Of a DNA stretch of 32,000 nt, positions 5,197 to 30,854 are shown piece after piece. The number at the start of each line of letters is the position of its first letter. Position 1 is the first letter of the stretch. Origin of the DNA: Gemmata obscuriglobus (GTDB taxonomy: Bacteria > Planctomycetota > Planctomycetia > Gemmatales > Gemmataceae). The translations under genes and the position numbers were made by a program. The DNA is taken from NCBI RefSeq assembly GCF_008065095.1, contig NZ_CP042911.1, positions 4,410,001 to 4,442,000 of the forward strand. Direction: 5' to 3'. Under the pieces are notes generated by a model, which saw only the letters and a program-made list of their open reading frames with translations, searched no databases and was not told where the DNA came from.

Positions 5197-6239
5197 ACCG
5201 CACCGTACAGCACCCGCTGCTCCGCGCCTCGAACCTGCTCGTGCACTGCTTTGCCGCTGTCAAGTGGCAGCAGATCGACGGGGGCAAGTGGAAATCGGCC
5301 GGAGGCAGGGTCTTATCCAACGAGGCCTACCAGCGCCACCAGCAGCGGGTCGGTAGCCGCGAGGCGAAGGGCGGGGCAAAAAAGGCCCCGGCGCCAAAGG
5401 GTGCGGCGCCGAAGCCGTCCGCCTCAGAGGCCGCGCCCGCCGGCTGGCCCACGGGAACGGCCGCCTGGGCGGCGCCGGAGGGCGGCAGCGCGCCCGCCGG
5501 CCCCCGGGCCATCGCCGCCCCCGCGAAGAGGAAGAAGAAAACGCGGTCCGGGGACCCGTCCGCCGCGGCGAACCGGGCCGCGTACGACCGGGTCCGGGCG
5601 GGCGGCCAGAGGCTCGGGCCGTACGCCGCGGACGTCGACTACACCCGGCCGATCACGCCGCCGGTGAAGGCCCCGCCGCTGCCCGGCGGTCAGAAGCTCC
5701 CGGACCCGACGCCCGCGGAGAGCGCGTACATCACCGCCCAGCACGGCCGGGACAAGCAGCGGTTCGGCGCGAAGGTGGCCGACTTCCTGAAGAAGGCCAC
5801 GGCCGGGGCGGTGGGCATCCTCGCCGGGCTCAACGGGATGGCGTGGGGCGCGATCGCCGGCAGTGCCCTGGGCGGCCCGCTCGGGCTCGCGCTCGGCACC
5901 GCCGTCGGGGGCGGGCTCGGCGGGAAGCTCGGGGCTTGGGGCGGGAAGAAGATCCTCAAGGCGGCCAAGCGGCCCGCCAAAGGGGGGAAGCGGGCCGGGT
6001 TCGCCGAGGCCCAGCCCGCGGACCTCGACCCGGTCCCGCTCATCAAGGCCCGGATCCGCGCCCTGCTCGCGCGTCAGGGCAAGCCGTCGGACATCCCGAT
6101 CGACGACGAGCCGATCCTGGCGGCCCTCGCACTGGCCGCCCAGGACGACGACGCGCAGGAGCGAGCCGCGGCGCTCGCCCGGATGGCCGAACCGGTCCGG
6201 GGACTGGTGGGCGCTTCGCGGAGGGTACGCCGTGCCTGA
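5193..6239 (+). CDS. Hypothetical low-complexity protein with a glycine-zipper TM-like segment
   Basis: ATG 5193 follows GAGGGAG. The N-terminus carries a degenerate W-motif (FAAVKWQQIDGGKWKSAGGRVLS). Lys/Pro/Ala-rich linkers are present. The glycine-zipper segment is GAVGILAGLNGMAWGAIAGSALGGPLGLALGTAVGGGLGG. No family recognised. Confidence 0.65.
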   Translation: MNRTVQHPLLRASNLLVHCFAAVKWQQIDGGKWKSAGGRVLSNEAYQRHQQRVGSREAKGGAKKAPAPKGAAPKPSASEAAPAGWPTGTAAWAAPEGGSAPAGPRAIAAPAKRKKKTRSGDPSAAANRAAYDRVRAGGQRLGPYAADVDYTRPITPPVKAPPLPGGQKLPDPTPAESAYITAQHGRDKQRFGAKVADFLKKATAGAVGILAGLNGMAWGAIAGSALGGPLGLALGTAVGGGLGGKLGAWGGKKILKAAKRPAKGGKRAGFAEAQPADLDPVPLIKARIRALLARQGKPSDIPIDDEPILAALALAAQDDDAQERAAALARMAEPVRGLVGASRRVRRA

Positions 6240-7296
6240 CCTGACCGACCTGCTCGCGCTCCGGGCGTGCGCCGCGAACGTGTGGGACGCGTTCGCCGGC
6301 TTCGACGACTGGACCCAGAAGAACACCGCCGCCGGTCTCCGCATGGTGTCGCCCAGCGGGAAGCGGTCGCTCACAGTGGAGGTGTTCAACCGGCTCAAGG
6401 GCCGCAAACCAGGTGAGAAGCGGTCCGCGCCGAAGGGGCCGAAGGCGCCCGCGGCCGGGAAGGGCGGGCCCAAACCCGGCGAGCAGGAGCGCATCCTGAC
6501 GATGAAGGCCAAGGTCGCGCGCGACTCCTACGACGCCGCGGTCCGGGCGAAGCTCCCGGCCGCCGAGCTGGAGCCGCTCCGCAAGCGGGCCGAGGCCGCC
6601 GAGGCGGAACTCAAGGCCGGGCCGAAGCCGTCGCCCACGCTCCCGGACACGAGCCTGCCCGCGGTCCCGAAGGAGGTGCCGGCGCCCGCACCCGCGGCCA
6701 AACCGAAACCCGCCCCGCCGGCGAAACCGAAGCCGCCTGCGGCGGCCCCGGAGTTCGACCCGAAGAAGAAGGTCGCGGACCCGCACGCGGTGGTGCGTCA
6801 GCCCCCGCGCGTCGGGCCGGCGCCCAAGGGGCCGGCCACGAACCGCGCCGGCGCCGCGGCGGGCCGGGTGAAAGCGGCCGCGACCGCGACGGGCGCGCCC
6901 GCGGTCCCGCCCCGGGCCGACGGCAGCCCGGACCTACCCGCGCTGAAGAAGAGCGTGGACGACGGCATCACCACCGGCCGCGCGCTGGGGTGGAACTACG
7001 AAACGACCGCGGCCCGGGCCGCTCTGAAAGCCGCGGAAAAGCAGATCGACGATTACGCCCGGAAGTTCCCGCGGAGGCTGGCCCCGCTCGCGCGCGAGGT
7101 GACGGGCGAGGCCCCGGACTCGACCCAGGACGCGGTGAAGAAGCTCAAGGCCTGGGTGGGCGAGACGCTCGACCTGCTCGACCCGGGCGCACGAGCGAAG
7201 GGGCGCACGGCCCACATGAGCGAGCGGGCCGTGCTCGCGGAACTGCGCGGGCGCTTGGTAGGCGTGCGGGCGCTGTGCCGGGCGCTGGCGGGCTGA
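6232..7296 (+). CDS. Hypothetical protein with an N-terminal W-motif, a coiled coil and a Pro/Lys/Ala-rich linker
   Basis: GTG 6232 follows GGAGGG and overlaps the previous stop by 8 nt. Third clear copy of the W-motif (nt 6277-6405: NVWDAFAGFDDWTQKNTAAGLRMVSPSGKRSLTVEVFNRLKGR). PAPAPAAKPKPAPPAKPKPP linker. Confidence 0.65.
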   Translation: MPDLTDLLALRACAANVWDAFAGFDDWTQKNTAAGLRMVSPSGKRSLTVEVFNRLKGRKPGEKRSAPKGPKAPAAGKGGPKPGEQERILTMKAKVARDSYDAAVRAKLPAAELEPLRKRAEAAEAELKAGPKPSPTLPDTSLPAVPKEVPAPAPAAKPKPAPPAKPKPPAAAPEFDPKKKVADPHAVVRQPPRVGPAPKGPATNRAGAAAGRVKAAATATGAPAVPPRADGSPDLPALKKSVDDGITTGRALGWNYETTAARAALKAAEKQIDDYARKFPRRLAPLAREVTGEAPDSTQDAVKKLKAWVGETLDLLDPGARAKGRTAHMSERAVLAELRGRLVGVRALCRALAG

Positions 7297-7393
7297 TCTC
7301 ACGGTCGGCGCCGCGGTTAGTCGCATCGCGACGACAGCTGTCGAGGTGCGGTCGCCCTTGAGGTCGAGACCGCCGTTTGACTCGGTACGACCC

Positions 7394-7828
7394 TCACTTG
7401 GGTTTGACCCGCTCGTAAGTGTACATCACCTCGCCCTCGGCTTCCGTTTTGAACTCCGTCGGTCGGTCCCCGCCGGCACGGAACACGGCCTTCATCTGAT
7501 CGCCGTTCAACTCATAAATGCCCTTATCGGTGCGGCCCCGGGCGTTCGTCACGTCGATCCATTTCGGCTTCTTCGTTGGGTCGAGCGCGATCGTTGTCTT
7601 CAGCGGCGGCAGCCCCGAGTTGGGGTCCGAAATGGAGGACTTCCCGTCCGCGGTGTACACGACAACCGACTTCGATTTGACCGCCTTTCCGCCGCTCTCG
7701 GCTTTGACGACCTTCCACTCACCTTCCAGCAATTTGAGTTCGTCCTTCACGGCCTTCGGCTGCTCTTCGCCCAAGGAAACGCAGGTGGTGAAGAGCGCCG
7801 CGAGCACGCAGAAACAAAGCCGGTTCAT
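7394..7828 (-). CDS. Secreted TIGR03067-family (Planctomycetes-specific lipocalin-like) domain protein; antisense moron 1
   Basis: Signal peptide MNRLCFCVLAALFTTCVSLG. The body LEGEWKVVKAESGGK...DPTKKPKWIDV...GIYELNGDQMK...DRPTEF matches my memory of the TIGR03067 signature. GC is visibly lower than in the flanks. Orientation is opposite to the structural operon. The longer track ORF (to 7945) has an implausible N-terminus. Confidence 0.8.
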   Translation of the reverse strand: MNRLCFCVLAALFTTCVSLGEEQPKAVKDELKLLEGEWKVVKAESGGKAVKSKSVVVYTADGKSSISDPNSGLPPLKTTIALDPTKKPKWIDVTNARGRTDKGIYELNGDQMKAVFRAGGDRPTEFKTEAEGEVMYTYERVKPK

Positions 7829-7921
7829 CAGAGCCCTCACGTGGTGGGTGGTGCTTCGGGTCCGAGGACGCAATGGCGATTTAGTTAGAGCAAACGAAGG
7901 AGTGATGAGAGCCGACGCGTT

Positions 7922-7954
7922 GCCGCACCGATTGGTGCGGCCCAACTCTTTTTT
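7922..7954 (+). terminator. Hairpin plus T6 tract (intrinsic-terminator-like on the + strand)
   Basis: GCCGCACC (7922-7929), GATT loop, GGTGCGGC (7934-7941), then a T6 run at 7949-7954. It lies just upstream of 21-nt box copy 1. It could stop + strand read-through that runs antisense across the moron. Confidence 0.3.
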
Positions 7955-7961
7955 GGTCTTC

Positions 7962-7989
7962 TTTCATCCGGGCAACCCTCCCGCGCACA
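7962..7989 (+). promoter_or_regulatory. Conserved 21-nt box, copy 1 (TTTCATCCGGGCAACCCTCCC, plus conserved tail GCGCACA)
   Basis: One of four co-oriented copies. The CAT of the box is 33 nt upstream of ATG 7998. Function unknown; see findings. Confidence 0.6.
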
Positions 7990-7997
7990 GTGGGGGC

Positions 7998-9680
7998 ATG
8001 CCCGGCGCCGCCACCCAGCCCCGCACCGCGACCCAGCCCCGCTACTACATGCTCCGCGACGTGAACCTGTTCGCGTCGGGGGTGTACCGCGGCCGGCGCT
8101 GGTTCCCGCACTGGGTGCGGAACATGGCCGAGGCCGGGCGCAAGCTCGGCCCGGGCGGCGCGAAGCTGCACACCCCGCCAGCGGCCCCCGGGCACGAGGA
8201 CGACGAGGGGTGGCGCGAGTTCGTCCCGACCGACGAGCCCGCGGCCGGGTGGGTCGACCCCAACAGCCTCCGCGCCGTCCCGGACCCGCAGCACGCGGGC
8301 CACGTGATCCTCAAGGGGAACGTGGTCAACGTGCCCGAGGCGATGGCCCGGAAGATCGAGAGCGGCGAGTACCGGTTCGGCTCGGCCGAGATCTACGACT
8401 CGTTCCTCGACGACTTCGGCCGCAAGTACGGCAAGGTGCTGCGCAAGTTCAGCTACCTCGGCGGCGAGGTGCCCCAGGTGAAGCGCCTGGGGCCGCTCCC
8501 GCGGCCCGAGCCGATGCCCGCGCCGATGCGGTTCAGCGAGCGCCCCGGGGTGCGGATCCGGGAGCACACCGTCCGGGGCCGCCGCGGCGCCCTGATCACC
8601 TTCGCGGAGACGAGCAGAATGGACCGCCAGTCGATGATCGCCGCGATCCAGGCGGACATGCCCGGGATCAGCCAGTCCACCCTCGACGCGATGACCGACG
8701 AGGCACTCGCGGACCTGGTCAAGAACCTCCCCACCGGGGCCGGAACTCCGACGCCGCCGGCGAACCCCGCCCCCGCGCCGGCCACCGGGATGTTCGCCGA
8801 GCCGAGCCGCGAGGAGATGATCGCCGCCCTGGTGGACGAGGGCGAGGACGCGGCCGAGCTCGAGGGGATGAGCGACGAGGAGCTCGGCGCCCTGTACGAG
8901 GAAGTGATCGGCGAAAGCACCGAGACCGAGGGCGAGGGCGAGGAACCCGTTGAGACGATGGCGGACCCGGCGGCCGTGACCCGCGAGGAGATGATCGCGG
9001 ACCTGGTGGCGCAGGGGCAGGACGCGGCCGCGCTCGACGCCATGCCCGACGACCAGCTCCGCGCCCTGTACGCCCAGCTCACCGCCGACCCGCCCGCACC
9101 GCCCGCGGCCCCCGCGCCGGCCCCGGCCGCCGTCCCGATGAGCGAGCCGCGGCGCAAACCCAGGCCCAAACCCGCCACCCGCAGGGGCGTCACCGTGAAC
9201 AGCGAACTCGCGATCAAGGCGAAGCGGCTGAACGCCGCGTTGGACAACGAGTTGTCTCGGCTCCGCGTCAGCAACGAGCGGCGGAAGCGCGACGACGCGA
9301 CGAAGTTCTGCGACCAGCTCGTCTCCGAGGGCCGGGCCACCCCGGCCCAGGTGACGGCCGCGTACCTGCCGCTCTTGCTCGGGCTCGACGACACCCGGGC
9401 CGTCCACCGGTTCACCGAGAACGGCCGGACCCGCAACCTCACCGCCTACGAGGCCCGCAAGGCCCAGCTCGCGCAGATGCCGGTGACGGTCAAGTTCGGC
9501 GAGCGGTTCGCCGCCGGCCCGCCCGCCGGCGAGTTCAGCGGCGAGGCCGAGCTGGCCAAGGTGAAGCAGTTCGCCGCCGCGGCCGTGCCCGAGTCCCACC
9601 GCGAGCAGTACGTGACCAGCTTCGCCGAGCTGCAGAAGAAGAAGCCGCGGATCACGGCCAAGGAGTACGGGGCGCGCTGA
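7998..9680 (+). CDS. Mu gpI-like prohead protease/scaffold protein, with an acidic repeat-containing scaffold-like C-terminal half
   Basis: Position between MuF and the major head gene. The N-terminal block ...KIESGEYRFGSAEIYDSF...LRKFSYLGGEVPQVKRLG resembles the Mu-like prophage I protein as I remember it. The C-terminal half is acidic and helical, with three about 35-aa repeats (R-E-E-M-I-A-x-L-V...L-x-A-L-Y). A nested in-frame scaffold product, as in Mu I/Z, is possible. Confidence 0.7.
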   Translation: MPGAATQPRTATQPRYYMLRDVNLFASGVYRGRRWFPHWVRNMAEAGRKLGPGGAKLHTPPAAPGHEDDEGWREFVPTDEPAAGWVDPNSLRAVPDPQHAGHVILKGNVVNVPEAMARKIESGEYRFGSAEIYDSFLDDFGRKYGKVLRKFSYLGGEVPQVKRLGPLPRPEPMPAPMRFSERPGVRIREHTVRGRRGALITFAETSRMDRQSMIAAIQADMPGISQSTLDAMTDEALADLVKNLPTGAGTPTPPANPAPAPATGMFAEPSREEMIAALVDEGEDAAELEGMSDEELGALYEEVIGESTETEGEGEEPVETMADPAAVTREEMIADLVAQGQDAAALDAMPDDQLRALYAQLTADPPAPPAAPAPAPAAVPMSEPRRKPRPKPATRRGVTVNSELAIKAKRLNAALDNELSRLRVSNERRKRDDATKFCDQLVSEGRATPAQVTAAYLPLLLGLDDTRAVHRFTENGRTRNLTAYEARKAQLAQMPVTVKFGERFAAGPPAGEFSGEAELAKVKQFAAAAVPESHREQYVTSFAELQKKKPRITAKEYGAR

Positions 9681-9741
9681 GCCCCGCCGCCGGTGCCGGC
9701 GCCCGCACCCCTCCGACCACCACTTAACCGGGAGCGATCCT

Positions 9742-10515
9742 GTGGCCAACGCAACCGACCGGGTCAAGAAGCGCGTCGTCCGCATCCAGGACCGGTTCAT
9801 CCGCCGGTCCTCGGAGACGCTGGGCGCCGCCACCCGGTACTACCAGCACGCCCTCGTCGGCACCGACGTGACCGGGTACCTGTGCAAGGGCGACGACAGC
9901 CAGTCCTGGGTGTTCGCCGGCGTGGTCCGGGGCAACGAGGGGAACCCGCTGCTCCCGGCCGGCACCGCCGGGACCCCCGAGCTCGACCTCGACATCGAGA
10001 TGCCGTACCGGCTCGAGGTGTCGATCGCCGGGGTGGCGGTCACCGACCTCGGCAAGAAGGTGTACGCGCTCGACGACCAGACCGGCACCCTGAGCGCCGC
10101 GGCCACCACGTTCGGCAACTTCATCGGCCACGTGGTCGAGATCGTGGCCCCGGGCATCGCGCTGGTCGAGCTGTGCTACGACGGGGTCGCCGCGCACGCC
10201 CGGTACGGCGTCACCCGGGTGCTGGCCGCGACCGGCGCCCAGAGCCTCACCCGGTGCGACCTGAACAAGGTCATCATCGTCCCCAACACGGCGGCGTACA
10301 CGATCACCCTGCCGGCCGTGGCCGACACCCAGGCCGGGGACCGGCTCACGTTCGTCAAGACCACCGCCGACGCGGCCGCCGCGACCCTCGACGGGAACGC
10401 CGCCGAGACCATCGACAACGGCGCCACCCTGGCGACCATCGACGCCCGCTACGACTGCGCCGAGCTGGTCTCGACCGGCACCGAGTGGGTCGTGCTGAAC
10501 CGCGACATCGCGTAA
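9742..10515 (+). CDS. Putative head decoration/cement protein (DUF2190-like N-terminal half plus an extra beta-rich C-terminal domain)
   Basis: GTG 9742 with GGGAG upstream. Located between the scaffold and major head genes. The N-terminal pattern VFAGVV...LEVSIAGVAV...GKKVYALDD...GNFIGHVVEIVAPGIALVEL resembles DUF2190-type cement proteins, from memory. Confidence 0.55.
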   Translation: MANATDRVKKRVVRIQDRFIRRSSETLGAATRYYQHALVGTDVTGYLCKGDDSQSWVFAGVVRGNEGNPLLPAGTAGTPELDLDIEMPYRLEVSIAGVAVTDLGKKVYALDDQTGTLSAAATTFGNFIGHVVEIVAPGIALVELCYDGVAAHARYGVTRVLAATGAQSLTRCDLNKVIIVPNTAAYTITLPAVADTQAGDRLTFVKTTADAAAATLDGNAAETIDNGATLATIDARYDCAELVSTGTEWVVLNRDIA

Positions 10516-10556
10516 CCGCCCCGCCCACCCGCAAGCCCCAAGCCGGAGACGTCCCC

Positions 10557-11516
10557 GTGGAAGTGACCCAGTTCACCGCGCTGGCCCGCGCCGAGTTCGC
10601 CAAGGGCAAGCTGGCCGCCGACGAGAAGCCGTTCCCGGCCAACCACGAGCCGTTCACGTTCCGCCTCGACAGCAAGTCGAAGGTCGAGACGCACACGTAC
10701 ATGTCGAACCTGCCGCGGCTCACCGAGTTCAAGGGGTACACCCCGTTCGCGCGGCTGGTGAACAAGGAGTACACGGTCGCCAACAAGACGTTCCGGGTCG
10801 GCGTGTCGGTCAAGAAGGAGGACGTGGACGACGACCAGACGGGCGGGTACATGAGCACCATCCAGGGGCTCCCCACCCGGGCCAAGAAGGACACCGGGCA
10901 CCTGATCCTGGCGCACCTCGCGGCCGGGGCCAGCACCAAGTGCTTCGACGGCACCAACTTCTTCGCCAACAGCCACCTGTTCGGCACCGGCGACAACCTG
11001 GACACGTTCGACGCCGCGTCCAACGACGGGCAGACGCACAAGATCATCGCCCTGATCACCGACAACCCGGTGGTCAAGCCGGTGCTGTTCCAGGACCGCG
11101 AGCCGTTGAGCGCGCTGGACACCGACGCGGACGAGGCCAACGCCCGGAAGCAGAAGGAGTACGAGTACTGGGTGGACTGCCGGTTCGGGCTCGGGTACGG
11201 GTTCTGGTGGGACGCGATCCAGCTCACCATCAGCGACACCCCGACGGTGGCCGAGTGCTACGCCATCGTCGAGCAGCTGATCAACGGGTTCCGGTCGTTC
11301 AAGCTGCCCAAGGCCAACGACGTGGACGACGAGCTGTTCGTGCACGAGGGCTGGGACCCGGCCCCGGGGAACCTGGTGCTGGCGTGCAACCTGAAGCTCG
11401 GCATCATCCTCAAGCGGGCCCTGGCGCTCACCCAGTACACCGCCCCGGGCGGCAACGTGGACAACGTGTACAAGGACGTGGCCACCGTGCTCCCGACCAG
11501 CGCGCTCGGCGCCTGA
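10557..11516 (+). CDS. Major head (capsid) protein, Mu gpT-like family
   Basis: GTG 10557 with GGAG 8 nt upstream. The block LPRLTEFKGYTPFARLVNKEYTVANKTFRVGVSVKKEDVDDDQTGGY...CFDGTNFFANSHLFG parallels Mu gpT (REWIGDR..K.L....Y.I.N..FE.TV.V...DIEDD..G.Y....CYDGQNFFDTDHP), as I recall it. Confidence 0.9.
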   Translation: MEVTQFTALARAEFAKGKLAADEKPFPANHEPFTFRLDSKSKVETHTYMSNLPRLTEFKGYTPFARLVNKEYTVANKTFRVGVSVKKEDVDDDQTGGYMSTIQGLPTRAKKDTGHLILAHLAAGASTKCFDGTNFFANSHLFGTGDNLDTFDAASNDGQTHKIIALITDNPVVKPVLFQDREPLSALDTDADEANARKQKEYEYWVDCRFGLGYGFWWDAIQLTISDTPTVAECYAIVEQLINGFRSFKLPKANDVDDELFVHEGWDPAPGNLVLACNLKLGIILKRALALTQYTAPGGNVDNVYKDVATVLPTSALGA

Positions 11517-12028: not shown

Positions 12029-12637
12029 ATGGCCGGGCTGGTGCTGAGCTTCGCGGACCTGGCCCGGGCGGCGCGACAGCCCGCCGCGGGGCCGCTCGCG
12101 CTCCCGGCCGTCGCGCCGCTCGACGCGCCGACGGGCCGCGAGCTGGTGCAGATCCTCGTCTCGGACGTGAAGCGGCGGTTCGCCACCGGCACCGCCCCCG
12201 ACGGCACGCCCTGGCGGCCGCTCCGGTACGGCCGGGCGTTCCGGGGCGGCGGCACCGCCCAGCCGCTCCGCGACACCGGGGCGCTGATGGCCAGCTTCAC
12301 CGGGCGGTTCACCGGCGACGAGGTCGTCGTCGGCACCAACCACCCCGGGGCCGCGCTGCACAACTTCGGCGGGACCGTGGTGCCCCGGAAGGGCAAGTTC
12401 CTGGCGATCGCCCTGACCGCCGCGGCGCGACGCGCGGGCTCCCCGCGGAACCTGCGCGGCACGGCCCGCGAGCCGCTGTTCGCCCGCCGGGTGAACGGCC
12501 GGCTGGTGGGGCACTTCCTGCTCGTGAAGAAGGCCGTGGTGCCGCGGCGCGAGTTCATGGGCGTGAGCGAGCCGGGGGCGACCGCGGCGGCCGCGGCCCT
12601 GGCCGAGAGCGCCGCCCGCAAGTGGCTGCAAACGTGA
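12029..12637 (+). CDS. Phage virion morphogenesis protein (Mu gpG-like / Phage_tail_S family)
   Basis: ATG lies 2 nt after the upstream stop. The pattern LVQILVSDVKRRFATGTAPDGTPWRPL...PLRDTGALMASFTG...VVVGTNHPGAALHNFGGTV...KFLAI is typical of gpG-like morphogenesis proteins, from memory. Confidence 0.8.
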   Translation: MAGLVLSFADLARAARQPAAGPLALPAVAPLDAPTGRELVQILVSDVKRRFATGTAPDGTPWRPLRYGRAFRGGGTAQPLRDTGALMASFTGRFTGDEVVVGTNHPGAALHNFGGTVVPRKGKFLAIALTAAARRAGSPRNLRGTAREPLFARRVNGRLVGHFLLVKKAVVPRREFMGVSEPGATAAAAALAESAARKWLQT

Positions 12638-12942: not shown

Positions 12943-13740
12943 GTGAATCTGAGCCTGGGGTTATCGCTGACATCGACCCGACGGCGCAGCGGGCTGGTCA
13001 ACCCGCTCGCGTTCCTGGGCGCGGCCTGCTACGCGCTGTTGGTCGCGTGGATGCGCGTCAACGGGCTGCTGTGGCAGGACCTGGCCCGCACGATCCCGGC
13101 CGTCTCGCACCTGGACCCGGTGCGGGTGGCGGTGTGGCCCTTCGGCCCGCTCGGTGAGGTGGTGTTTACGGCCCCTTCTGACGCCGCGCGCCCGCTGCTG
13201 TACTTCGAGGGCGGGTTGTTGTGGTCGCTGAGCTTCGACGGGGTGGACGATTGCCTTGTCGCCAACGCGAATCTTCCCACCCCATCCGGTCAGGCGGTTA
13301 CCGTTGGGGCGCGTAGCAATCGATCAATCAAATCAGGCGGTACATCGATACTCTACGGCTCAAATGCGGTCGGAGGTGATTTGCGCGGGCACCACGTCCG
13401 TAGCCCACCGGGCTCGACCGGTAGCGGGTCGCACATTTACGGCGCGGGTGGATCGCAGTTAGCTACAGCCTATCTCACCGGAGACACAACGGGCGCCAAT
13501 ACGATCGTAGTGGAATACGACAACGCGTTGTCGCAGACTAGAATTTCATTCAACGGCGGGACGCCTGTTGTTGGTAACTGGGTCGGCGCTCCCTTCCCGA
13601 CTTCCAATCAATTGAATATTGGTGCGGAAGCGGGTTTAAATAATTACCTGGGTAGGACTTCCGGGTTCTCTCTTCTGTCCGGTTCGCTCCTGAGTGCCGG
13701 AACCAAATCGGCCCTCGAAGCCTATCTCGGAGGGCTGTAG
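12943..13740 (+). CDS. LamG/concanavalin-A-like lectin-fold protein (Laminin_G_3-like). Candidate head-spike fibre or sense-strand moron.
   Basis: GTG 12943. The pattern FDGVDDCLV...TVGAR...GTPVVGNW...NQLNIGAEAGLNNYLGRTSGFSLLSGSL...ALEAYL is typical LamG_3 architecture. The N-terminal 40 aa are hydrophobic (LVNPLAFLGAACYALLVAWM). From about 13250 onward GC and codon usage drop markedly. Confidence 0.7.
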   Translation: MNLSLGLSLTSTRRRSGLVNPLAFLGAACYALLVAWMRVNGLLWQDLARTIPAVSHLDPVRVAVWPFGPLGEVVFTAPSDAARPLLYFEGGLLWSLSFDGVDDCLVANANLPTPSGQAVTVGARSNRSIKSGGTSILYGSNAVGGDLRGHHVRSPPGSTGSGSHIYGAGGSQLATAYLTGDTTGANTIVVEYDNALSQTRISFNGGTPVVGNWVGAPFPTSNQLNIGAEAGLNNYLGRTSGFSLLSGSLLSAGTKSALEAYLGGL

Positions 13741-13742
13741 CG

Positions 13743-14087
13743 GTGCCAGCCGTTTACGTTATCGCAATCGTCCCCGCTGGCACCCGCGACCTCGCGGAAG
13801 CAGCCGTATCGCCCTACCTGACCTCGCCACCGGCCGCAGGTGCCTATTCGTTCGCGGCCCCCCTCGTGCCATTCCCCGGCCCGGCAAGCGCGGCCCCCAC
13901 CGCCTACGGCTGCTGCGCCCCGTGCGGCCCGGAGACGGTGGCGGCGCTCGGCGGGCTCACGGCCGCGATCCCGGGCAGCGCGGCGCATACAGTCGATCCC
14001 GCTGTGTACGACCGCGAGACGCACGTGATCGCGTGGCTCGCGGCCCGTGGGTATCAGCCGCAGGTTCTGGAGCCGGTGCCGGTGTGA
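13743..14087 (+). CDS. Hypothetical protein (114 aa)
   Basis: GTG 13743 with GGAGGG 9 nt upstream, 2 nt after the previous stop. Moderately G/C-rich third codon positions. No family recognised. Confidence 0.5.
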   Translation: MPAVYVIAIVPAGTRDLAEAAVSPYLTSPPAAGAYSFAAPLVPFPGPASAAPTAYGCCAPCGPETVAALGGLTAAIPGSAAHTVDPAVYDRETHVIAWLAARGYQPQVLEPVPV

Positions 14088-14124
14088 CGGCCGCTCTCAT
14101 CGCCTCGCCCCACCGGAAGGACCC

Positions 14125-14604
14125 ATGCCCATCACCGATTACCACGTGCTGATCCGCGACGCCGTCCGAGCGGCGCTCCAGGCCGCCACCGACGCGCTCG
14201 CCACCGAACTCGCCGCGCAGCCGCTCCCGTGGCACGCGGTGGACGAGCTCGACGACGCCGCGCGGCTCACCCGCCCGTGCGGGGTCGTGTGTTGCGTCGG
14301 CCCGGAGCAGGAGCGCCCGGAGTTCGGCACCAATCGCCAGGACGGCCGCGGCTACCCGGTCGCGGTGATGCTGCTCGGCAGCGGGAAGAGCCACGGCGAG
14401 AAGCACACCGGGCCGACGGACCTCACGGGGTTCAGGAGATTGGTGACGACGACGCTCAACCGCCAGCGGCTCGCCGGCGTCGCCCAGGTCGCGGTGTGCG
14501 AGGTGGGCGACAGCGGGCCGATCGTGGACGAGAAGGCGCCGCTGTTCCAGGTGCTCGCAACGGCGCTGGTGGTGAGCTGCGTGGGTCGGTTCCCGCGGGG
14601 GTGA
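14125..14604 (+). CDS. Hypothetical protein (159 aa). By position it is a neck/tail-terminator candidate.
   Basis: ATG 14125 follows GGAAGGA. It is the last + strand gene before the tail tube module. Its size and layout are compatible with DUF3168/gpU-like tail completion proteins, but I cannot verify this. Confidence 0.55.
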   Translation: MPITDYHVLIRDAVRAALQAATDALATELAAQPLPWHAVDELDDAARLTRPCGVVCCVGPEQERPEFGTNRQDGRGYPVAVMLLGSGKSHGEKHTGPTDLTGFRRLVTTTLNRQRLAGVAQVAVCEVGDSGPIVDEKAPLFQVLATALVVSCVGRFPRG

Positions 14605-14699
14605 GTGGAGTGGCTTCTGTGCGGCTGCTCAGGAATCCCATCTGTATACTTATAAAATATTCACATTTGTTGAACTTATTTGATAATAATTTATTGGAT

Positions 14700-15731
14700 T
14701 TATTGTCTTCTTGGTGCGGCATAATTGCAATTTATGAGCGTGTGCAATAAATCTTGAACAGATCGTAAAAGTGTTAAGGCTTTATTGCGCTGTTCTTGAG
14801 AATTGTTGGGTTGGGTTGTTGACGAGGCGCCAACTGATGCTAGCGCGTAAGATGGGCCGGGTCGAGCGCCTTCCAGGATGCTCAGCAGTTCCGCGCGGGC
14901 TTCGCTAGCTTCGGAACTTGGGTCGATATGCAATTTGATTTTTGAAACGAAATCCTCAACTCGTTTTCGCGTCTCCTCAAGGCGGGTAGCATGCGCCCAT
15001 TGTCCTGGTGGGCTTTCGCTGATTGTGCTGATCATACTGGCTACGTGTTGGACCATTTCGCTTGCTTCGAGCCTGATTTGCTGCTCTGGCCTAAAGAGGG
15101 TCGAATTTTTGGCCATATCCTCGCGGGCAAGGAGAAAAATGGCCGAGGCCAATTCCTGCTTCACCGCTTTCGGGTCGCCGTCCCCCATACCCCGGTTCGA
15201 TCCGGTAGCCTGCCCAACTGAGTTGTAGTGCTCCCACAAGGCCGAGAGCGCGCCGATGAGGGCCGTACGTGACGCTGTGTCCGCTTGACGTGCGGCTTCG
15301 GTTCGGGCGAGCCTCATTTCTTCTTGTGTTTCAGCCAATGACTTTCTCTGCAACCACATCGTGTAAATCAGCACAGCTAGAGCGAGCGCCGAAAACAGCG
15401 CATTGATCGCGCCGAACATGTCCCCGAACTGACCGCGAGCGGCGTGGGCTCTGTCGATAGCTTGGGCCTTCGCAGAGACACGCTCTTTCTCGACCGATGT
15501 CGCATTCGGGTCCGTAACGATTAGTGATTCATCCGGCTTGAAGGCATTTACGATCAACGCCCAATAGACCCCCCAGGCCAACACAACGATGAATGCTGTC
15601 GCAAAGAAAAACAGCAGGGGTGCATTGTGCGCGGTTGGGCGATTCGTCTCAGCCACTTGGTAACCCTCGTATTGAGTCAGCACTTTCGCGCGCACGCGGG
15701 CTTGCGCCAACTCCGTTTCCCCAACTTTCAT
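14700..15731 (-). CDS. Two-TM membrane protein with an about 210-aa helical C-terminal domain; antisense moron 2 in an AT-rich island
   Basis: TM1 is LLFFFATAFIVVLAWGVYWALIV and TM2 is FGAINALFSALALAVLIYTMW, followed by a charged helical tail. GC and codon usage differ strongly from the rest of the window, with many A/T-ending codons. The start is ATG 15731 (inside 21-nt box copy 2) or GTG 15752. No family recognised. Confidence 0.7.
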   Translation of the reverse strand: MKVGETELAQARVRAKVLTQYEGYQVAETNRPTAHNAPLLFFFATAFIVVLAWGVYWALIVNAFKPDESLIVTDPNATSVEKERVSAKAQAIDRAHAARGQFGDMFGAINALFSALALAVLIYTMWLQRKSLAETQEEMRLARTEAARQADTASRTALIGALSALWEHYNSVGQATGSNRGMGDGDPKAVKQELASAIFLLAREDMAKNSTLFRPEQQIRLEASEMVQHVASMISTISESPPGQWAHATRLEETRKRVEDFVSKIKLHIDPSSEASEARAELLSILEGARPGPSYALASVGASSTTQPNNSQEQRNKALTLLRSVQDLLHTLINCNYAAPRRQ

Positions 15732-15752
15732 CCGGGCAACCCGCCCCCGCAC
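15726..15752 (+). promoter_or_regulatory. Conserved 21-nt box, copy 2 (TTTCATCCGGGCAACCCGCCC, plus CCGCAC)
   Basis: Same orientation as the other copies. The CAT is 74 nt upstream of the tail tube ATG 15803. CCAACTC lies 12 nt upstream here and 13 nt upstream at copy 1. Confidence 0.6.
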
Positions 15753-15802
15753 ACTAAAGCCTCACCGGGCCGCGTGTTCCGCTTGGGGGTGAGGGCGCTA
15801 CG

Positions 15803-16678
15803 ATGGCGGACAAGGTCGGCGTGTTCAACCGCTTGCTGTACGCCGGCTCCGGCGTTACCACGGCCACGCACGAGTTCGAGTTCCTCGAAGGCTCGACGCT
15901 GGGCCTCTCTGAGAACTTCATCGACACGAACGGCATCCGGGGTACCCGCTCGCACAGCTCCGAGCGGGTGCGGCGCGGGACCCGGCGGGTCGACGGCCAG
16001 ATCATTCTGGCCCCGACGCCGGTCGAGCTCGCCGTCTGGCTGCCGCTGATCCTGGGCGGCACGCCCTCGGGCACGAGCTACCCGCTCGGCGAGAACCTGC
16101 CGCTGTTCAACCTGTTCGGCGTGCGGGACGGGACCGTGTACACGTACTCGGACTGCGTCGTCACGAACGCGACGTTCAGCGCGTCCGAGGGCGGCCCGAT
16201 GCAGCTGTCGCTGACGATCATCGGCAAGGACGAGACCCAGTCCGGCTCCGCCGGCGCCGCGACCATCGACCTGACCACGCAGCCGTTCGTGCTGCACGAC
16301 GCGGTGGTGTCGGTGGGCGGCTCGAACCGCGAGGTGGCGAGCTTCTCGCTCGCGATCGACAACGTCGTCGAGGCCAAGTTCCGCAACTCGGCGACGATCA
16401 CCCAGCTCAAGGCCACCGACCGCAACGTGACCGTCGACCTGCCGGTGAGCCTCGGGACCGACGCGGCGCTGTACGGCTCGGCCGTCGGGGGCGTGGCCAC
16501 GACGCTCACGCTCACCAACGGGGGCTGCTCGCTGACCTTCTCCATGACCAAGGTGCAGGCCCCGAAGCAGCCGCTCCCGTTCGGCCAGCGGGGCATTCTG
16601 GACCTGCCCTGGCGCGGCGTCGCCCGCAAGGACGGCGCCACGCCGGAGCTCACCACCACACTGGACAGCACCCCATGA
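15803..16678 (+). CDS. Putative major tail (tube) protein, siphovirus type
   Basis: It sits directly upstream of the G/GT chaperone pair and the tape measure. It is beta-rich and 291 aa long, with an N-terminal pattern THEFEFLEGSTLGLSENFIDTNGIRGTRS...VDGQIILAPTPVEL reminiscent of phage tube proteins. No sheath gene is present. Confidence 0.6.
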   Translation: MADKVGVFNRLLYAGSGVTTATHEFEFLEGSTLGLSENFIDTNGIRGTRSHSSERVRRGTRRVDGQIILAPTPVELAVWLPLILGGTPSGTSYPLGENLPLFNLFGVRDGTVYTYSDCVVTNATFSASEGGPMQLSLTIIGKDETQSGSAGAATIDLTTQPFVLHDAVVSVGGSNREVASFSLAIDNVVEAKFRNSATITQLKATDRNVTVDLPVSLGTDAALYGSAVGGVATTLTLTNGGCSLTFSMTKVQAPKQPLPFGQRGILDLPWRGVARKDGATPELTTTLDSTP

Positions 16679-17402: not shown

Positions 17403-19186
17403 CCCCGGCCCAAAAGCAACTCGAGCTGCGCCTCAAGGTCACGGCCGACGTGGCCGACGCGCAGCGGAACCTCCAGCAGCTCGCGACCGCCGCCCAGCAG
17501 ACGCACGGCCGGGCCGCCGGCCCCCAGGGCTTCGGCGGCTACGTTCCGCCGCCCGGCTTCGGGGCGCCGGGGCAACCGCCGGCCCCGGCGGCGGGCGGCG
17601 CGGTGCCGCGCCCCGGCCCGTTCACCTCGGCGGTGCCGGCGTTCGACCGCCCGGTCCCGGTGGTGATCGTCGGGCCGAAGCCGCTGCACGTCACCGGAAC
17701 GGGCGGCGCGGGTGCCGGCCCCGGGGGCGGGGCCGGGGGCAAGAGCGCGGGCGACAAAGAAAAGGAGCGGCACGAGGCGCTGCTGACCTCGTTGCGGAAC
17801 CTCCAGCTCGGGGGAACCGTCGGACGGTACGAACAGATCAAGGGGTTCGGCGAGGCCGCGGGCAAGCTCGGCCTCCCCGGCGGGGCGCTGCTCGGCCGCC
17901 TGGCCGGCCCGGCGGCGATCGCCCTGGGCGCGCTGCAGGTGGCGGGCGACGCCGGGGAGATCCTCAGCGACGAGTACACGACCGGCGAGCAGAAGGGCCG
18001 GGCGGCGGTGCGGAAGTTCGTCCCCTTCGGCGAGACCATCCAGAGCTCGATCGACGGGCTGACCGGGCGCAAGGCCGGGATGGAGCGGGCCGAGGTGGAC
18101 TACCAGAAGCAGATGGCCGAGGTGAGCGCGCGGGCCGAGAAGGCGTCGTTCGACCTGGGCTACCGCCCCGAACAGGCCGGGTACGAGGCGCGCGAAACGC
18201 TGCTCGCCCGCGCGACACCGATCCTGGAGGGGGCGAGCGACCGCACCACCGCCGCCGGCGAGAAGGCGTTCCGGGACCGGCAGCGGCTGCTGCCGATCGA
18301 GCGCGAGGAGGCGAAGCTCCAGCGCGAGGCGGCCGTCGCCACCGCGCAACGCGCCAGCGCCGAGGCGGCGCTGGGCGACATCCAGGCCAAGCGGGCCGAG
18401 GCGGCGCGGCGCGAGCAGCAGAAGGGCCGGGAGCTGGGGGGCGACGGCCGCCCGCTCCTGCCGACCGCGGTTTCGTTACTGGCCTTCGGGCCGGTGACGC
18501 ACGCGCTCTTGGGGGGCCGGGGGACGTACGACGCGAACCAGTCCGGCGTGTCCCGCCAGCGCACCCTGTACGAGCAGGCGGCGGCGGGGGCCGAGGCGCA
18601 GCAGCTCGGCGAGCTCGAGAAGCAGGCCCGCCGCGCGGTGGTCGAGGCCCGCCGCCGGGAGGCCGAGACCGGGCGATCTGCCGGACAGGCCCGAGTGCAG
18701 CGCCTCCAGGCCGAGGCCGACATCCTTGATGGGGACGCCTCCCAGGCGGCCTCGGGCGCGCAGTCGCTCGGCGGAATGGATCGCTTCTCACGTGCGAACG
18801 CCGTGCGCTCGCTGCAGCTGCTGCAGCAGTTCGGCCCGGAGCGGATGAGCCCCCGCGAGCTGGCCGAGGCGCGCGCGGTCGCCCCACAAACGGTGGCGAA
18901 GATCCTCGAGCAGGCGGGCAAGCAGACGCCCCAGTTCGACGCCCTCCGCGCGCTCGCGCCCGCGGACTACGCCGGCGACCCGGAAGAACTGCGCCGCAAA
19001 GCGCAGGAGAAGCGCGACGAGGCCGCCCAGAAGGAGCTCGACCTCGATCGCACCCTTGCGACCAAGGTCGCGGCGGCCGGGCGCGACCTCGGCAAGTACA
19101 TCGGCGACATCATCGACCAGATCGCCGACGAGATCAAAAAAGGGATCGACCGCGACAAGCGGATCGGACGGGGGGCCAGCAGCTAG
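17399..19186 (+). CDS. Tape measure protein (595 aa)
   Basis: It follows the G/GT pair. It is long, Ala/Gly/Arg/Glu-rich and helical, with Gly-rich tracts. The rule of thumb of about 0.15 nm per residue predicts a tail of roughly 90 nm. Confidence 0.8.
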   Translation: MTPAQKQLELRLKVTADVADAQRNLQQLATAAQQTHGRAAGPQGFGGYVPPPGFGAPGQPPAPAAGGAVPRPGPFTSAVPAFDRPVPVVIVGPKPLHVTGTGGAGAGPGGGAGGKSAGDKEKERHEALLTSLRNLQLGGTVGRYEQIKGFGEAAGKLGLPGGALLGRLAGPAAIALGALQVAGDAGEILSDEYTTGEQKGRAAVRKFVPFGETIQSSIDGLTGRKAGMERAEVDYQKQMAEVSARAEKASFDLGYRPEQAGYEARETLLARATPILEGASDRTTAAGEKAFRDRQRLLPIEREEAKLQREAAVATAQRASAEAALGDIQAKRAEAARREQQKGRELGGDGRPLLPTAVSLLAFGPVTHALLGGRGTYDANQSGVSRQRTLYEQAAAGAEAQQLGELEKQARRAVVEARRREAETGRSAGQARVQRLQAEADILDGDASQAASGAQSLGGMDRFSRANAVRSLQLLQQFGPERMSPRELAEARAVAPQTVAKILEQAGKQTPQFDALRALAPADYAGDPEELRRKAQEKRDEAAQKELDLDRTLATKVAAAGRDLGKYIGDIIDQIADEIKKGIDRDKRIGRGASS

Positions 19187-20064
19187 CGCTCCCGGCCCGC
19201 CGAGTCGAGGGCCGCGGCGGAAATATCTTGTGGGCCGAAATCGGCCTTGGGCGCTGCGCTCGCCACGCGCTGCGCGAACGCCTTTCGCTCTTCGGCCGGC
19301 AGAAGGGCGGAGGTGGCCCACACGCGGACCAGCAGCTCGGCCTCCTGCTCGGCCGAGGAGGCCGAGCCTGCTTGTTTGCGGGCGAGGTGCCACAGGGGCG
19401 GCTTCTCCGGCCCGTCCGCCATGCCCGCTTTTGCGGCGCTCGCGAACGCCAACTGATTCAGCCCCACATCCTGAAGAAGCACGTAGTCACTCGCGAGCGG
19501 GGACGACGCGCGTTGGAACAGCTCCATGTTGACCCCGACCGCAACGAGCTGGGGCTCGGGCAACCGACTCAGCTGTGCCTCGGTGCGGCCGGAATCGCCA
19601 CGGATCGAGAAGCCGGCAAATTGAGACGCGGATCGTTTGACGGCTTCGCGATCCGCTCGCGACGGCACGGGGCCGACACGAAGCAGCCCGACGGTCACCG
19701 GGGCGACCCTCTCAGCCCGTTGGACGCTGAGTTCATCCGATCGCTCGATTCCCACTTTCTGCACCCGCAGGAGAGCGTCCACGCAGGACGATCGTTCGCC
19801 CTGGCTCATCCCGCCAAGGGCTTGCGCCGACCGTGAGCTGAGGGCCGCCTGGACGCTCAGCCGTTCGGCCTCCCCGTACCCCGAGGCGATATCCACCCGT
19901 TTTTTCGCGAGGGCCAGCACCGGCCCCCATTCTGGGGCTTTAGATTCGTTCGTGTTCGGCTTTTTAGAAGAAGGCTGCGATGTGGCGGCGCCGCGCTGCG
20001 TTGGTCGGGAAGTGTCGCAACCGAGAACAGTGAACAGGGCGATGACGGCAAAGGGCCAGCGCAT
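19183..20064 (-). CDS. Lipoprotein of unknown function; antisense moron 3
   Basis: MRWPFAVIALFTVLGC gives a signal peptide with an L-G-C lipobox, followed by a Ser/Lys/Pro-rich linker. GC is lower than in the flanks. Its stop overlaps the tape measure stop inside the palindrome GCTAGC (19182-19187). Confidence 0.7.
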   Translation of the reverse strand: MRWPFAVIALFTVLGCDTSRPTQRGAATSQPSSKKPNTNESKAPEWGPVLALAKKRVDIASGYGEAERLSVQAALSSRSAQALGGMSQGERSSCVDALLRVQKVGIERSDELSVQRAERVAPVTVGLLRVGPVPSRADREAVKRSASQFAGFSIRGDSGRTEAQLSRLPEPQLVAVGVNMELFQRASSPLASDYVLLQDVGLNQLAFASAAKAGMADGPEKPPLWHLARKQAGSASSAEQEAELLVRVWATSALLPAEERKAFAQRVASAAPKADFGPQDISAAALDSAGRER

Positions 20065-20219
20065 GCGCAGGTCGCTCCGGTGCGGGCGCACGCACCGGCG
20101 GCGGCGGCCCGCGCGCCGTCCCGCCCCTCACTCTCACACCGGGGTATTGGACCCGATCGGCTGCGTTGCGCCAAGGGGTTCCGGGGTCAGGGGTTGTGGC
20201 GGGTGGGCGCCCCGCGCAC

Positions 20220-20247
20220 TTTCATCCGGGCAACCCGCCCCGCGAAG
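20220..20247 (+). promoter_or_regulatory. Conserved 21-nt box, copy 3 (TTTCATCCGGGCAACCCGCCC, plus CGCGAAG)
   Basis: Same orientation as the other copies. The CAT is 33 nt upstream of ATG 20256, the same spacing as copy 1. Confidence 0.6.
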
Positions 20248-20255
20248 CTGAGCGC

Positions 20256-28969: not shown

Positions 28970-28976
28970 CCCGTCC

Positions 28977-29040
28977 CTCCCTTGACTCCCCGTTGCTGGA
29001 CTTGTCACCAGCGTTCCACCGCGGAACGGTCGGGTTAAGG
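28977..29040 (-). repeat. Leader type A, copy 1
   Basis: A 37-nt block is identical to 30763-30799 (CTCCCTTGACTCCCCGTTGCTGGACTTGTCACCAGCG). It is followed by a hairpin whose stem differs from copy 2 by two compensatory pairs, then GGTCGGGTTAAGG. Confidence 0.7.
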
Positions 29041-29062
29041 GCCGGGGCCACAAGGCCCCGGC
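29041..29062. terminator. GC hairpin GCCGGGGCC-ACAA-GGCCCCGGC
   Basis: Perfect 9-bp stem 4 nt downstream (in - sense) of the stop of 29067..29399. Confidence 0.5.
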
Positions 29063-29399: not shown

Positions 29400-29523
29400 G
29401 AACGGCCCTCCGTCGACAGGAACCCGGCTCTGCGTTGCACGGGCTGGCCACCGTTCCCCGGCCCGCGCCGGGGAGCCGCATTACGGCCCCGCGGCCCCGG
29501 GAAACCGGGGCCGCGGCGGGCGC
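29400..29523 (-). repeat. Intergenic module type B, copy 1
   Basis: Blocks: CTCTGCGTTG (29428-29437); CACGGGCTGG; perfect 8-bp palindrome 29455-29462/29467-29474; GCCGCATTA (29475-29483); 12-bp hairpin 29489-29500/29505-29516 with a GAAA loop. Confidence 0.65.
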
Positions 29524-30396: not shown

Positions 30397-30518
30397 CTGA
30401 AAACCTCCGTTCGTTCACCCCCCTCTGCATTCGCTCCGGGCTTGGGACCGGCGCCGCGGCGCGTGCCGCGGCGGCTGCATTACGGCCCGCGGCCCCCGGG
30501 TTCGGGGGCCGCGTCGGG
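30397..30518 (-). repeat. Intergenic module type B, copy 2
   Basis: Blocks: CTCTGCATTC (30423-30432); CTCCGGGCTTGG; perfect 9-bp palindrome 30452-30460/30465-30473; GCTGCATTA (30474-30482); 10-bp hairpin 30489-30498/30503-30512. Confidence 0.65.
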
Positions 30519-30755: not shown

Positions 30756-30762
30756 GAGCAGC

Positions 30763-30828
30763 CTCCCTTGACTCCCCGTTGCTGGACTTGTCACCAGCGC
30801 CCCACCGTGGGGCGGTCGGGTTAAGGGC
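30763..30828 (-). repeat. Leader type A, copy 2
   Basis: See copy 1. The hairpin here is CGCCCC-ACCGT-GGGGCG (30798-30814), against CGTTCC-ACCGC-GGAACG (29012-29028) in copy 1. Confidence 0.7.
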
Positions 30829-30854
30829 CGCGGCCCCGGTTTCCCGGGGCCGCG
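30829..30854. terminator. GC hairpin CGCGGCCCCGG-TTTC-CCGGGGCCGCG
   Basis: Perfect 11-bp stem 4 nt downstream (in - sense) of the stop of 30859..31107. It has the same stem as the hairpin at 29489-29516, with the loop in the opposite orientation. Confidence 0.55.

Follow-up and report, generated by a model that had tools for sequence, protein, structure and literature searches.

A low-GC membrane-protein gene in an insertion hotspot of a Mu-like Gemmata prophage and its possible anti-phage role

Hotspots at which prophages carry morons and defense systems have been described for P2-like and P4-like elements. We report here a comparable site in a 32,000-nucleotide (nt) stretch of the Gemmata obscuriglobus genome (contig NZ_CP042911.1; hereafter the window), which is the late region of a Mu-like prophage. 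In this prophage the site is occupied by a low-GC island whose single gene, the cargo gene, encodes a protein of up to 343 amino acids (aa) with two predicted transmembrane (TM) helices. As in the P2-like and P4-like hotspots, the site is fixed between phage genes and is either empty or filled with unrelated foreign cargo, which in one case is a defense-type ATPase gene. It differs from them in belonging to a Mu-like Gemmataceae lineage, in having cargo that is consistently antisense and lies just upstream of a conserved promoter-like box, and in the heterogeneity of this cargo, most of which has no recognized defense signature.

The closest described proteins are the lactococcal abortive infection (Abi) proteins AbiC and AbiP, which were grouped together in a 2026 review (PMC13064643). 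Each system in this group is a single gene whose product, about 250-350 aa long, is anchored in the membrane by TM helices at its N-terminus (two in AbiC, one in AbiP) and continues into a helical soluble part (PMC13064643). AbiP requires both its membrane anchor and a soluble nucleic-acid-binding domain, and it is triggered by a phage major tail protein (PMC13064643). The cargo protein follows the same plan of an anchor and then a helical soluble domain, and its N-terminal membrane module is as in proteins positive for PF16872 (putAbiC). Judged by its sequence, it is AbiC/AbiP-like in layout and not a PF16872 member. We tentatively propose that it is a prophage-encoded, membrane-anchored, single-protein anti-phage factor, a reading that we consider plausible and just short of an even call.

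The island and its surroundings in the window are as follows.

Within 7518-9680: head maturation protease (PHROG matches).
Within 9693-11516: major head subunit, Mu-like gpT (family and PHROG matches).
About 12100-12637: Phage_tail_S / Neck1 gene, upstream of the cargo.
14128-14604, plus strand: left border, a conserved late gene of about 158 aa (neck or tail-terminator position), the last before the insertion; 42-65% identical to a gene of about 155 aa in L129-L136.
14605-14699, no strand: the tail of the cargo, an intergenic stretch very rich in AT that separates two convergent stop codons.
14700-15731, minus strand: cargo gene as called, 343 aa from the ATG at 15731, with its TAA stop at 14700-14702; full-length homologs P0002 and P0130.
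15725-15754, plus strand: box copy 2, CTTTCATCCGGGCAACCCGCCCCCGCACAC, a regulatory or promoter-like backbone element belonging to the tube operon, with a conserved GGGCAAC core; it also marks where the insertion is bordered on the right.
15803-16678, plus strand: right flank, the tail tube gene (Phage_tube_2, E 1.2e-23; 180 relatives at E <= 1e-20).

A paralogous tube protein is also encoded in Gemmata obscuriglobus (GobsT_63610). Nine related Gemmataceae prophage regions (L004 and L129-L136) were fetched through relatives of the tube protein, and with the window they make ten loci. The interval just upstream of the tube gene differs among them.

L130, L132, L134 and L136: no insert; the orthologous gene of about 155 aa abuts the tube gene, with a gap of 59-90 nt.
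L133: no insert; a 54-nt gap after a different gene of 749 aa.
Window: 1.2 kb, the two-TM protein gene, antisense.
L004 (tube protein 85% identical): a low-GC antisense gene for an AAA_15/AAA_21 ATPase, at 1-840 on the minus strand and cut by the contig end.
L129: an 83-aa Cys-rich protein, antisense.
L131: two antisense genes, of 332 and 330 aa.
L135: a 171-aa protein, antisense.

The cargo is antisense in all five occupied loci and spans 0.3-2 kb, and none of the other inserts is related to the Gemmata obscuriglobus protein. Because the relatives have either an empty site or unrelated cargo at this position, the island is a true insertion at a variable site, and it is very probably an accessory cassette in a hotspot. 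Variable presence at a fixed site, together with a GC content at third codon positions (GC3) of 0.58 that is unlike the 0.91-0.97 of the backbone, agrees with the comparative definition of a moron. The only flanking direct repeat that might serve as an insertion signature is a 9-nt match, GGGGGTGAG, too short to be meaningful, and a search of viral contigs for related loci, by alignment to the tube gene and with the upstream protein, returned nothing. The best PADLOC matches of the L004 ATPase are NsnB (4e-13), AriA (1e-11), GajA, Old and AbiLi, and the occurrence of this defense-type gene at the same site in a sister prophage lends circumstantial support to the anti-phage reading.

The hotspot also accepts what appears to be a selfish gene. 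The 332-aa protein of L131 (2851-3849, minus strand) has LAGLIDADG-like motifs recognized by eye (GFLMGDGS, VVDADGSL) and a weak HTH_23 match; Pfam gave no homing-endonuclease domain. The cargo gene of the window could likewise be a functionless hitchhiker, either a decaying remnant or purely selfish DNA, and no promoter-like site was detected for it. Its open reading frame (ORF) is nevertheless intact, its membrane motif is preserved at every invariant position, and three proteins that are 33-50% identical have retained the whole architecture along with shared C-terminal motifs; we consider such an origin very improbable.

The island was originally predicted to be the strongest compositional anomaly of the window, and its composition bears this out. 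Positions 14605-15724 have 52.9% GC, compared with 73.4% in the rest of the window, and the lowest 1,032-nt window of the 32 kb begins at 14601-14651 with a GC content of 0.523, about 4.4 standard deviations below the mean (0.725, standard deviation 0.046). In 400-nt windows, 14401-15600 lies at 0.54-0.57 GC against a background of about 0.73, and in 100-nt windows GC drops to 0.27-0.37 at 14600-14800. The description of 14640-14720 as nearly GC-free was an overstatement, the stretch having 25.9% GC, yet it is by far the lowest of the window: the 80-nt minimum is 22.5% at 14633, and the next lowest 80-nt stretch is at 43.8%. The cargo gene itself has a GC content of 0.545 and a GC3 of 0.58, whereas GC3 reaches 0.97 in the tube gene and 0.91 in the upstream ORF at 14047-14604. 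The highest GC content within the genus Gemmata is 67.6% according to a species description (PMC10817699), so the island, about 13 points under the host and about 20 under the prophage backbone, is an outlier relative to both, and the composition analysis that the prediction had named as a possible refutation did not refute it. The island DNA is foreign and very probably horizontally acquired.

The AT-rich tail of the island folds into no stable hairpin (z 0.9), nothing resembling a terminator hairpin follows the cargo gene, and the island as a whole has no Rfam, tRNA or tandem-repeat match; a terminator, an RNA gene, a tRNA and a tandem repeat were accordingly dropped as explanations of the tail. 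A 1,781-bp Logan contig (L003), equal to window positions 13994-15774 and thus holding the island and the upstream gene, recurs in at least 20 sequencing runs and ends about 20 nt beyond the box. We did not retain this recurrence as a sign of transcription, since the type of these runs could not be ascertained and it is explained more simply if low-GC DNA assembles preferentially.

The cargo gene lies opposite in strand to all flanking late genes, as originally predicted. The minus-strand ORF at 14700-15752 encodes 350 aa from a GTG, or 343 aa from the ATG at 15731. It is a real coding gene, because its homologs P0002 (46% identity over 92% of the query by BLASTP, 50% in a three-way alignment) and P0130 (33% identity) align with it over their full length. 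The ATG at 15731 does fall inside box copy 2, as had been remarked, and it is perhaps not the true start, because the box is a backbone element that is also present at empty sites. An alternative start, the GTG at 15656, would give 318 aa and has a GAGGG 7 nt upstream; the N-terminus of P0002 aligns from residue 26 of the called protein. The first 35 nt or so left of the box are common to L004, where the same ATG opens an ORF of only 35 codons, and the box ATG at copies 1 and 3 opens peptides of merely 28 and 12 aa. From these alignments the called protein may be 25 residues too long, the GTG at 15656 suiting the homologs better than the ATG at 15731. The parts of the gene, all on the minus strand, are listed here.

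15657-15731: doubtful N-terminal extension (aa 1-25), overlapping the backbone box and the leader common to L004; absent from P0002.
15540-15620: TM helix 1 (aa 38-64); hydropathy windows 1.5-2.3, a helix in the AlphaFold2 (AF2) model with a predicted local distance difference test (pLDDT) score of about 84.
15342-15437: conserved motif and TM helix 2 (aa 99-130), RGQFGDMFGAINALFSALALAVLIYTMWLQRK; invariant in alignment A1.
15276-15341: charged helical stalk after TM2 (aa 131-152); part of a continuous helix over residues 79-175 in the AF2 model.
14703-15275: orphan C-terminal helical-bundle domain (aa 153-343); found only in the cargo protein (P0001), P0002 and P0130.

The box itself occurs in the window at 7961-7990, 15725-15754 and 20219-20248, and in L004 at 917-946. 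In the form CTTTCATCCGGGCAACCC(G/T)CCC it stands ahead of three late blocks, namely the protease and head genes, the tube gene and the gene at 20267, and each copy in the window marks where a low-GC island ends on the right, with the next late gene starting 40-80 nt further on. All ten loci, the five without an insert among them, have an unchanged GGGCAAC core ahead of the tube gene. When these loci and the two other window copies are aligned, the core is followed by an A...T hexamer at a fixed position and then by a G-rich stretch before the start codon. Since the core is also present at empty sites, the box is a backbone element and says nothing about the cargo. Read from the sequence, it would most simply be a late-operon promoter or a regulatory site, such as an activator site, specific to this lineage; Mu has several late promoters. 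We rejected the box as a cassette boundary or as a start signal of the cargo, given the core at empty sites and the ORFs of only 12-35 codons that its ATG opens elsewhere. A search for the 17-nt box in viral and metagenome collections gave about 118 matches, all by chance or unrelated, and L003 and L004 alone contained the extended box.

The two-TM helical nature of the product, which had been predicted, agrees with two hydrophobic segments at about aa 38-64 and 104-127 (Kyte-Doolittle, 19-residue windows above 1.5) and with AF2 models in which the remainder is all-helical. The N-terminal part is by sequence a member of an unnamed family of two-helix modules, which we call RGxFGDxFG after its motif. 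TM1 comes before this motif, which reads R-G-x-F-G-D-x-F-G-x-x-N-x-L-F-S-x-L-A-F-A ... L-Q-R and lies at the start of TM2. Among 129 module members, conservation is 100% at G, D, F, G and Q and more than 90% at R, N, L, F and A, in a set made up of the best-scoring hits and therefore biased towards conservation. The cargo protein keeps all of the positions above 90% apart from F(19), where it has L. In the family, E, K, R or Q make up about 49% of the 45 residues that follow TM2. A profile of the module recovers at least 2,803 proteins, of which the typical one is about 166 aa long and unannotated.

Two existing families overlap the motif and TM2 region of the cargo protein, and neither covers its C-terminal domain. 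PHROG 8999 (phrog_8999) matches it at aa 92-145 with an E-value of 1.3e-8. The match to DUF6082 (PF19560) is sub-threshold, at aa 101-150 and model positions 3-45 (14.9 bits against a gathering score of 26.7, E 0.02), so that about 45 of the 163 model positions are involved; a few module-bearing proteins are precomputed as PF19560. A literature search on putAbiC, DUF4760, DUF6082 and Gemmata prophages returned nothing relevant.

A pair of TM helices with a charged helical tail behind them is also the layout of a class II holin, and one module-bearing protein, P0003, has a faint, sub-threshold match to a mycobacterial two-TM holin family (E 0.073). That match is not significant, and a protein of 318-343 aa with a structured 190-residue bundle is far larger than a holin. 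Moreover, the phage's own lysis gene would not be foreign, run against the late operons and be missing from most related prophages, as this gene does, and a holin- or antiholin-like role in lysis timing seems to us highly implausible.

The link to abortive infection comes from the company the module keeps. In 11 examined proteins it precedes a PF16872 putAbiC domain, or the C-terminal part matches the PADLOC models for AbiP or AbiC, or both. These are P0005, P0006, P0008-P0010, the proteins of L005, L006, L008 and L009, a Vibrio inovirus protein and a Klebsiella plasmid protein; PF16872 was confirmed by a scan in all except those of L005, L006 and L009, the L009 protein being identical to that of L008 and those of L005 and L006 showing the YFR motif of the domain by eye only. 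The PADLOC AbiP or AbiC models are matched by P0005, P0009 and the proteins of L137, L138 and L008. The PF16872- or AbiP-positive proteins that share the module are found on phages, plasmids and viral contigs: the Klebsiella gene is on a conjugative plasmid beside a GmrSD-type gene, and the Vibrio gene is on an inovirus. In P0007 the module is followed by DUF4760 rather than putAbiC. We favor an anti-phage role for the cargo protein because the same membrane module is fused elsewhere to this AbiC/AbiP-like domain.

The C-terminal domain of about 190 residues is confined to three proteins in a HMMER profile search of 1.84 billion representatives, namely the cargo protein, P0002 and P0130, and all three also carry the N-terminal module. 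Residues 128-343 are 24% charged, and the motifs ALWEH and LHIxPNS are conserved across the three C-terminal domains. The AF2 model of the full-length protein is poor (pLDDT 58); a model of the C-terminal domain alone has six to seven helices, a pLDDT of 70.8 and a predicted template modeling (TM) score of 0.58. Because R and K residues follow TM2, the bundle is probably cytoplasmic. The genes of the three proteins share a compositional bias in different settings.

Window gene: GC3 0.58, neighbors 0.91-0.97; Mu-like prophage, antisense.
P0002: GC3 0.63, neighbors 0.89-0.96; mobile element with a D5-type primase and a sigma factor, antisense.
P0130: GC3 0.58, neighbors 0.88-0.92; alone among planctomycete chromosomal genes.

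In these three settings the gene travels alone, which answers the question raised by the original prediction of whether it has partners. Module genes in the IMG/VR contigs L007-L010 are in turn 8-10 GC points below their own contigs. Frequent horizontal transfer fits these data, as all three subfamily members and the four IMG/VR module genes are compositional outliers.

These observations bear on the broadest of the alternatives, in which the cargo is a lysogenic-conversion or membrane-physiology gene and the module a general element of membrane stress or protein quality control, of some other benefit to the host or the prophage. Most of the module proteins recovered are small, unannotated and without a defense match; one of them, P0011, is encoded between groEL and dnaJ-grpE; P0130 sits amid ordinary planctomycete chromosomal genes; and other islands of this prophage encode exported proteins without a defense signature, including one with a TIGR03067 domain. 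Yet the chaperone context is a single case, the module occurs repeatedly with AbiC/AbiP-like domains on phages and plasmids, and the outlier composition of all three subfamily members suggests a frequency of transfer that fits a defense or accessory gene better than a housekeeping one. We regard this alternative as somewhat unlikely.

The topology speaks to another possibility, superinfection exclusion by a passive membrane blocker of genome entry or receptor access that does not kill the cell. A prophage-borne membrane protein antisense to the late genes could be expressed in the lysogen, the loop of about 40 residues between the two hydrophobic helices could face outward, and two other antisense islands encode exported or lipoprotein-like proteins. 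On the other hand, most of the protein, about 215 residues, follows TM2, and the R and K that flank it point to the cytoplasm; family and profile searches revealed no known exclusion protein with any similarity to it; and the proteins that share the module carry domains of the AbiC/AbiP type, AbiC and AbiP being known to act after DNA entry (PMC13064643). A blocker of this kind is quite improbable in our view.

The gene is very probably a single-gene moron placed between two late transcription units and transcribed against the late genes, its left end directly after the stop codon that closes the neck-side genes and its right end a short way ahead of the tube-operon box. Under the anti-phage reading that we favor, the inferred topology, lysogen expression, anti-phage role and division into sensor and effector would combine as follows. 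The product would be an inner-membrane protein made of a two-helix hairpin, a charged helical stalk and a helical bundle of about 190 residues. The lineage-specific C-terminal bundle would sense a cue from an infecting phage, upon which the conserved membrane module would serve as the anchor or else harm the membrane. The outcome would be abortive infection or exclusion, with protection of the lysogen. In a wider and, we think, unlikely scenario, the module would be a widespread and undescribed membrane effector, for instance an oligomerizing pore or leak with a small-xxx-small helix face, joined to interchangeable cytoplasmic sensors (putAbiC, DUF4760 and the orphan bundle) in a modular family of single-protein immune sensors found in many phyla and their phages, and the Gemmata copy would be a new specificity class for planctomycete phages, delivered via a dedicated hotspot next to a late promoter.

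Several results weigh against an anti-phage role. The cargo protein has no at-threshold match to any Pfam, NCBIfam or PADLOC model. PF16872, an 80-position C-terminal model with a gathering score of 22 bits that maps to the C-terminal part of true members, does not match it even at E <= 10; the PADLOC AbiC and AbiP models do not match it at E <= 1, nor P0130 at E <= 0.01. We rejected a diverged putAbiC identity of the C-terminal domain, as hhalign of a three-sequence profile of this domain (A7) with a six-sequence profile of the putAbiC C-terminal domain (A8) gave a probability of 0.1% and an E-value of 0.52. Foldseek searches with the C-terminal domain against PDB and BFVD returned only generic helical bundles (E >= 0.26, TM score below 0.45). 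The link to Abi systems thus runs through the shared membrane module only, because the C-terminal domain is not putAbiC and has no structural neighbor, and it is in the PF16872-type proteins, rather than in the lactococcal AbiC and AbiP themselves, that the module motif was seen. The module alone is no defense marker, since the proteins that carry it are mostly small and unannotated and since its closest standalone representative, P0011 (175 aa, L141 8001-8528), is encoded between groEL and dnaJ-grpE in the same orientation on a 2.5-Mb contig. The hotspot likewise holds cargo without a defense signature. Finally, no sigma-70-like promoter site was found on the cargo gene's own strand, in a scan that does not cover planctomycete promoters.

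The original prediction had taken foreign composition, antisense placement and membrane topology together as the profile of a superinfection-exclusion or abortive-infection effector. The foreign, antisense and two-TM character of the gene stands, now with a variable site added, whereas a match to a defense model and a relation to an Abi C-terminal domain did not materialize. Its statement that the protein belongs to no recognizable family agrees with the absence of any curated family or solved structure at threshold. The proposed structure search with an AF2 model found no structural neighbor (Foldseek of the full-length model against PDB gave nothing, and a PDB sequence search gave only noise at E 0.09), and no housekeeping family was matched at threshold in Pfam or NCBIfam.

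The window and its relatives contain further accessory features. A second low-GC island at 7200-8000 (0.60-0.65 GC) carries an antisense ORF (7394-7945, minus strand) just left of box copy 1, whose product has a signal peptide and the planctomycete-specific TIGR03067 domain (E 1.7e-25) and is host-like cargo of a different kind. A second antisense slot lies directly after the tape-measure-like gene, with a 302-aa lipoprotein-like ORF in the window (19183-20091, minus strand), and is filled antisense in nearly every relative (L130 7292-7627, L131 8102-8587, L133 8139-8729, L134 8050-8535, L135 8470-9321 and L136 7625-7843); the products L131_161, L133_196 and L135_283 are homologous at 35-42% identity. 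The genes of this slot gave no family or defense match. The late gene at 12943-13740 (plus strand, 265 aa, GC3 0.71) has a low-GC 3' half (about 0.49-0.55, especially 13450-13700) and no family match, and a Laminin_G_3 protein about as large is encoded in this neighborhood in L134; this gene may be a recently exchanged decoration or receptor-binding module.

The window also contains repeats. A 74-nt direct repeat, 92% identical, occurs at 28976-29049 and 30762-30835, 1.8 kb apart, and a GC-rich palindrome, CCGCGGCCCCGG...CCGGGGCCGCG, is present near the right end in three copies (29489-29515, 30487-30513 and 30828-30854); these may be regulatory or terminator elements. A repeated coding segment, which encodes ...RMVSPSGKRSLT..., lies at 135-231, 2868-2926 and 6297-6393 with 71-80% DNA identity, twice in the overlapping ORFs 4-4089 and 552-4085 and once in ORF 5863-7296, which suggests a domain common to the proteins at the left of the late region. 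The C-terminus of the product of ORF 5863-7296 resembles, by eye, the 330-aa cargo protein of L131. The protease/scaffold gene contains a 95-nt duplication, 82% identical (8804-8898 and 8978-9072). ARAGORN reported a 'tRNA-???' with a four-base anticodon at 17524-17619, inside the tape-measure-like gene, probably a false positive in GC-rich coding sequence.

What is new here is an orphan domain joined to the membrane module in an unexplored phage-host system; accessory membrane-protein genes of prophages and the membrane module itself are known. A specialist would not be very surprised by the locus, which is useful mainly for its hotspot, for the box in the backbone and for a module under such strong conservation. 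Conflict between phages and hosts has hardly been explored in Planctomycetes, and this locus offers a concrete, testable candidate, a prophage-borne membrane protein, in a culturable species. The Mu-like prophages of Gemmataceae have at least one fixed cargo site beside a late-operon box, which can be mined for accessory and defense genes. The locus also draws attention to a conserved membrane module that is present in thousands of unannotated proteins and forms the N-terminal part of proteins of the AbiC/AbiP type. If the module proves to be the active part of these proteins, it would help explain how AbiC/AbiP-type systems work.

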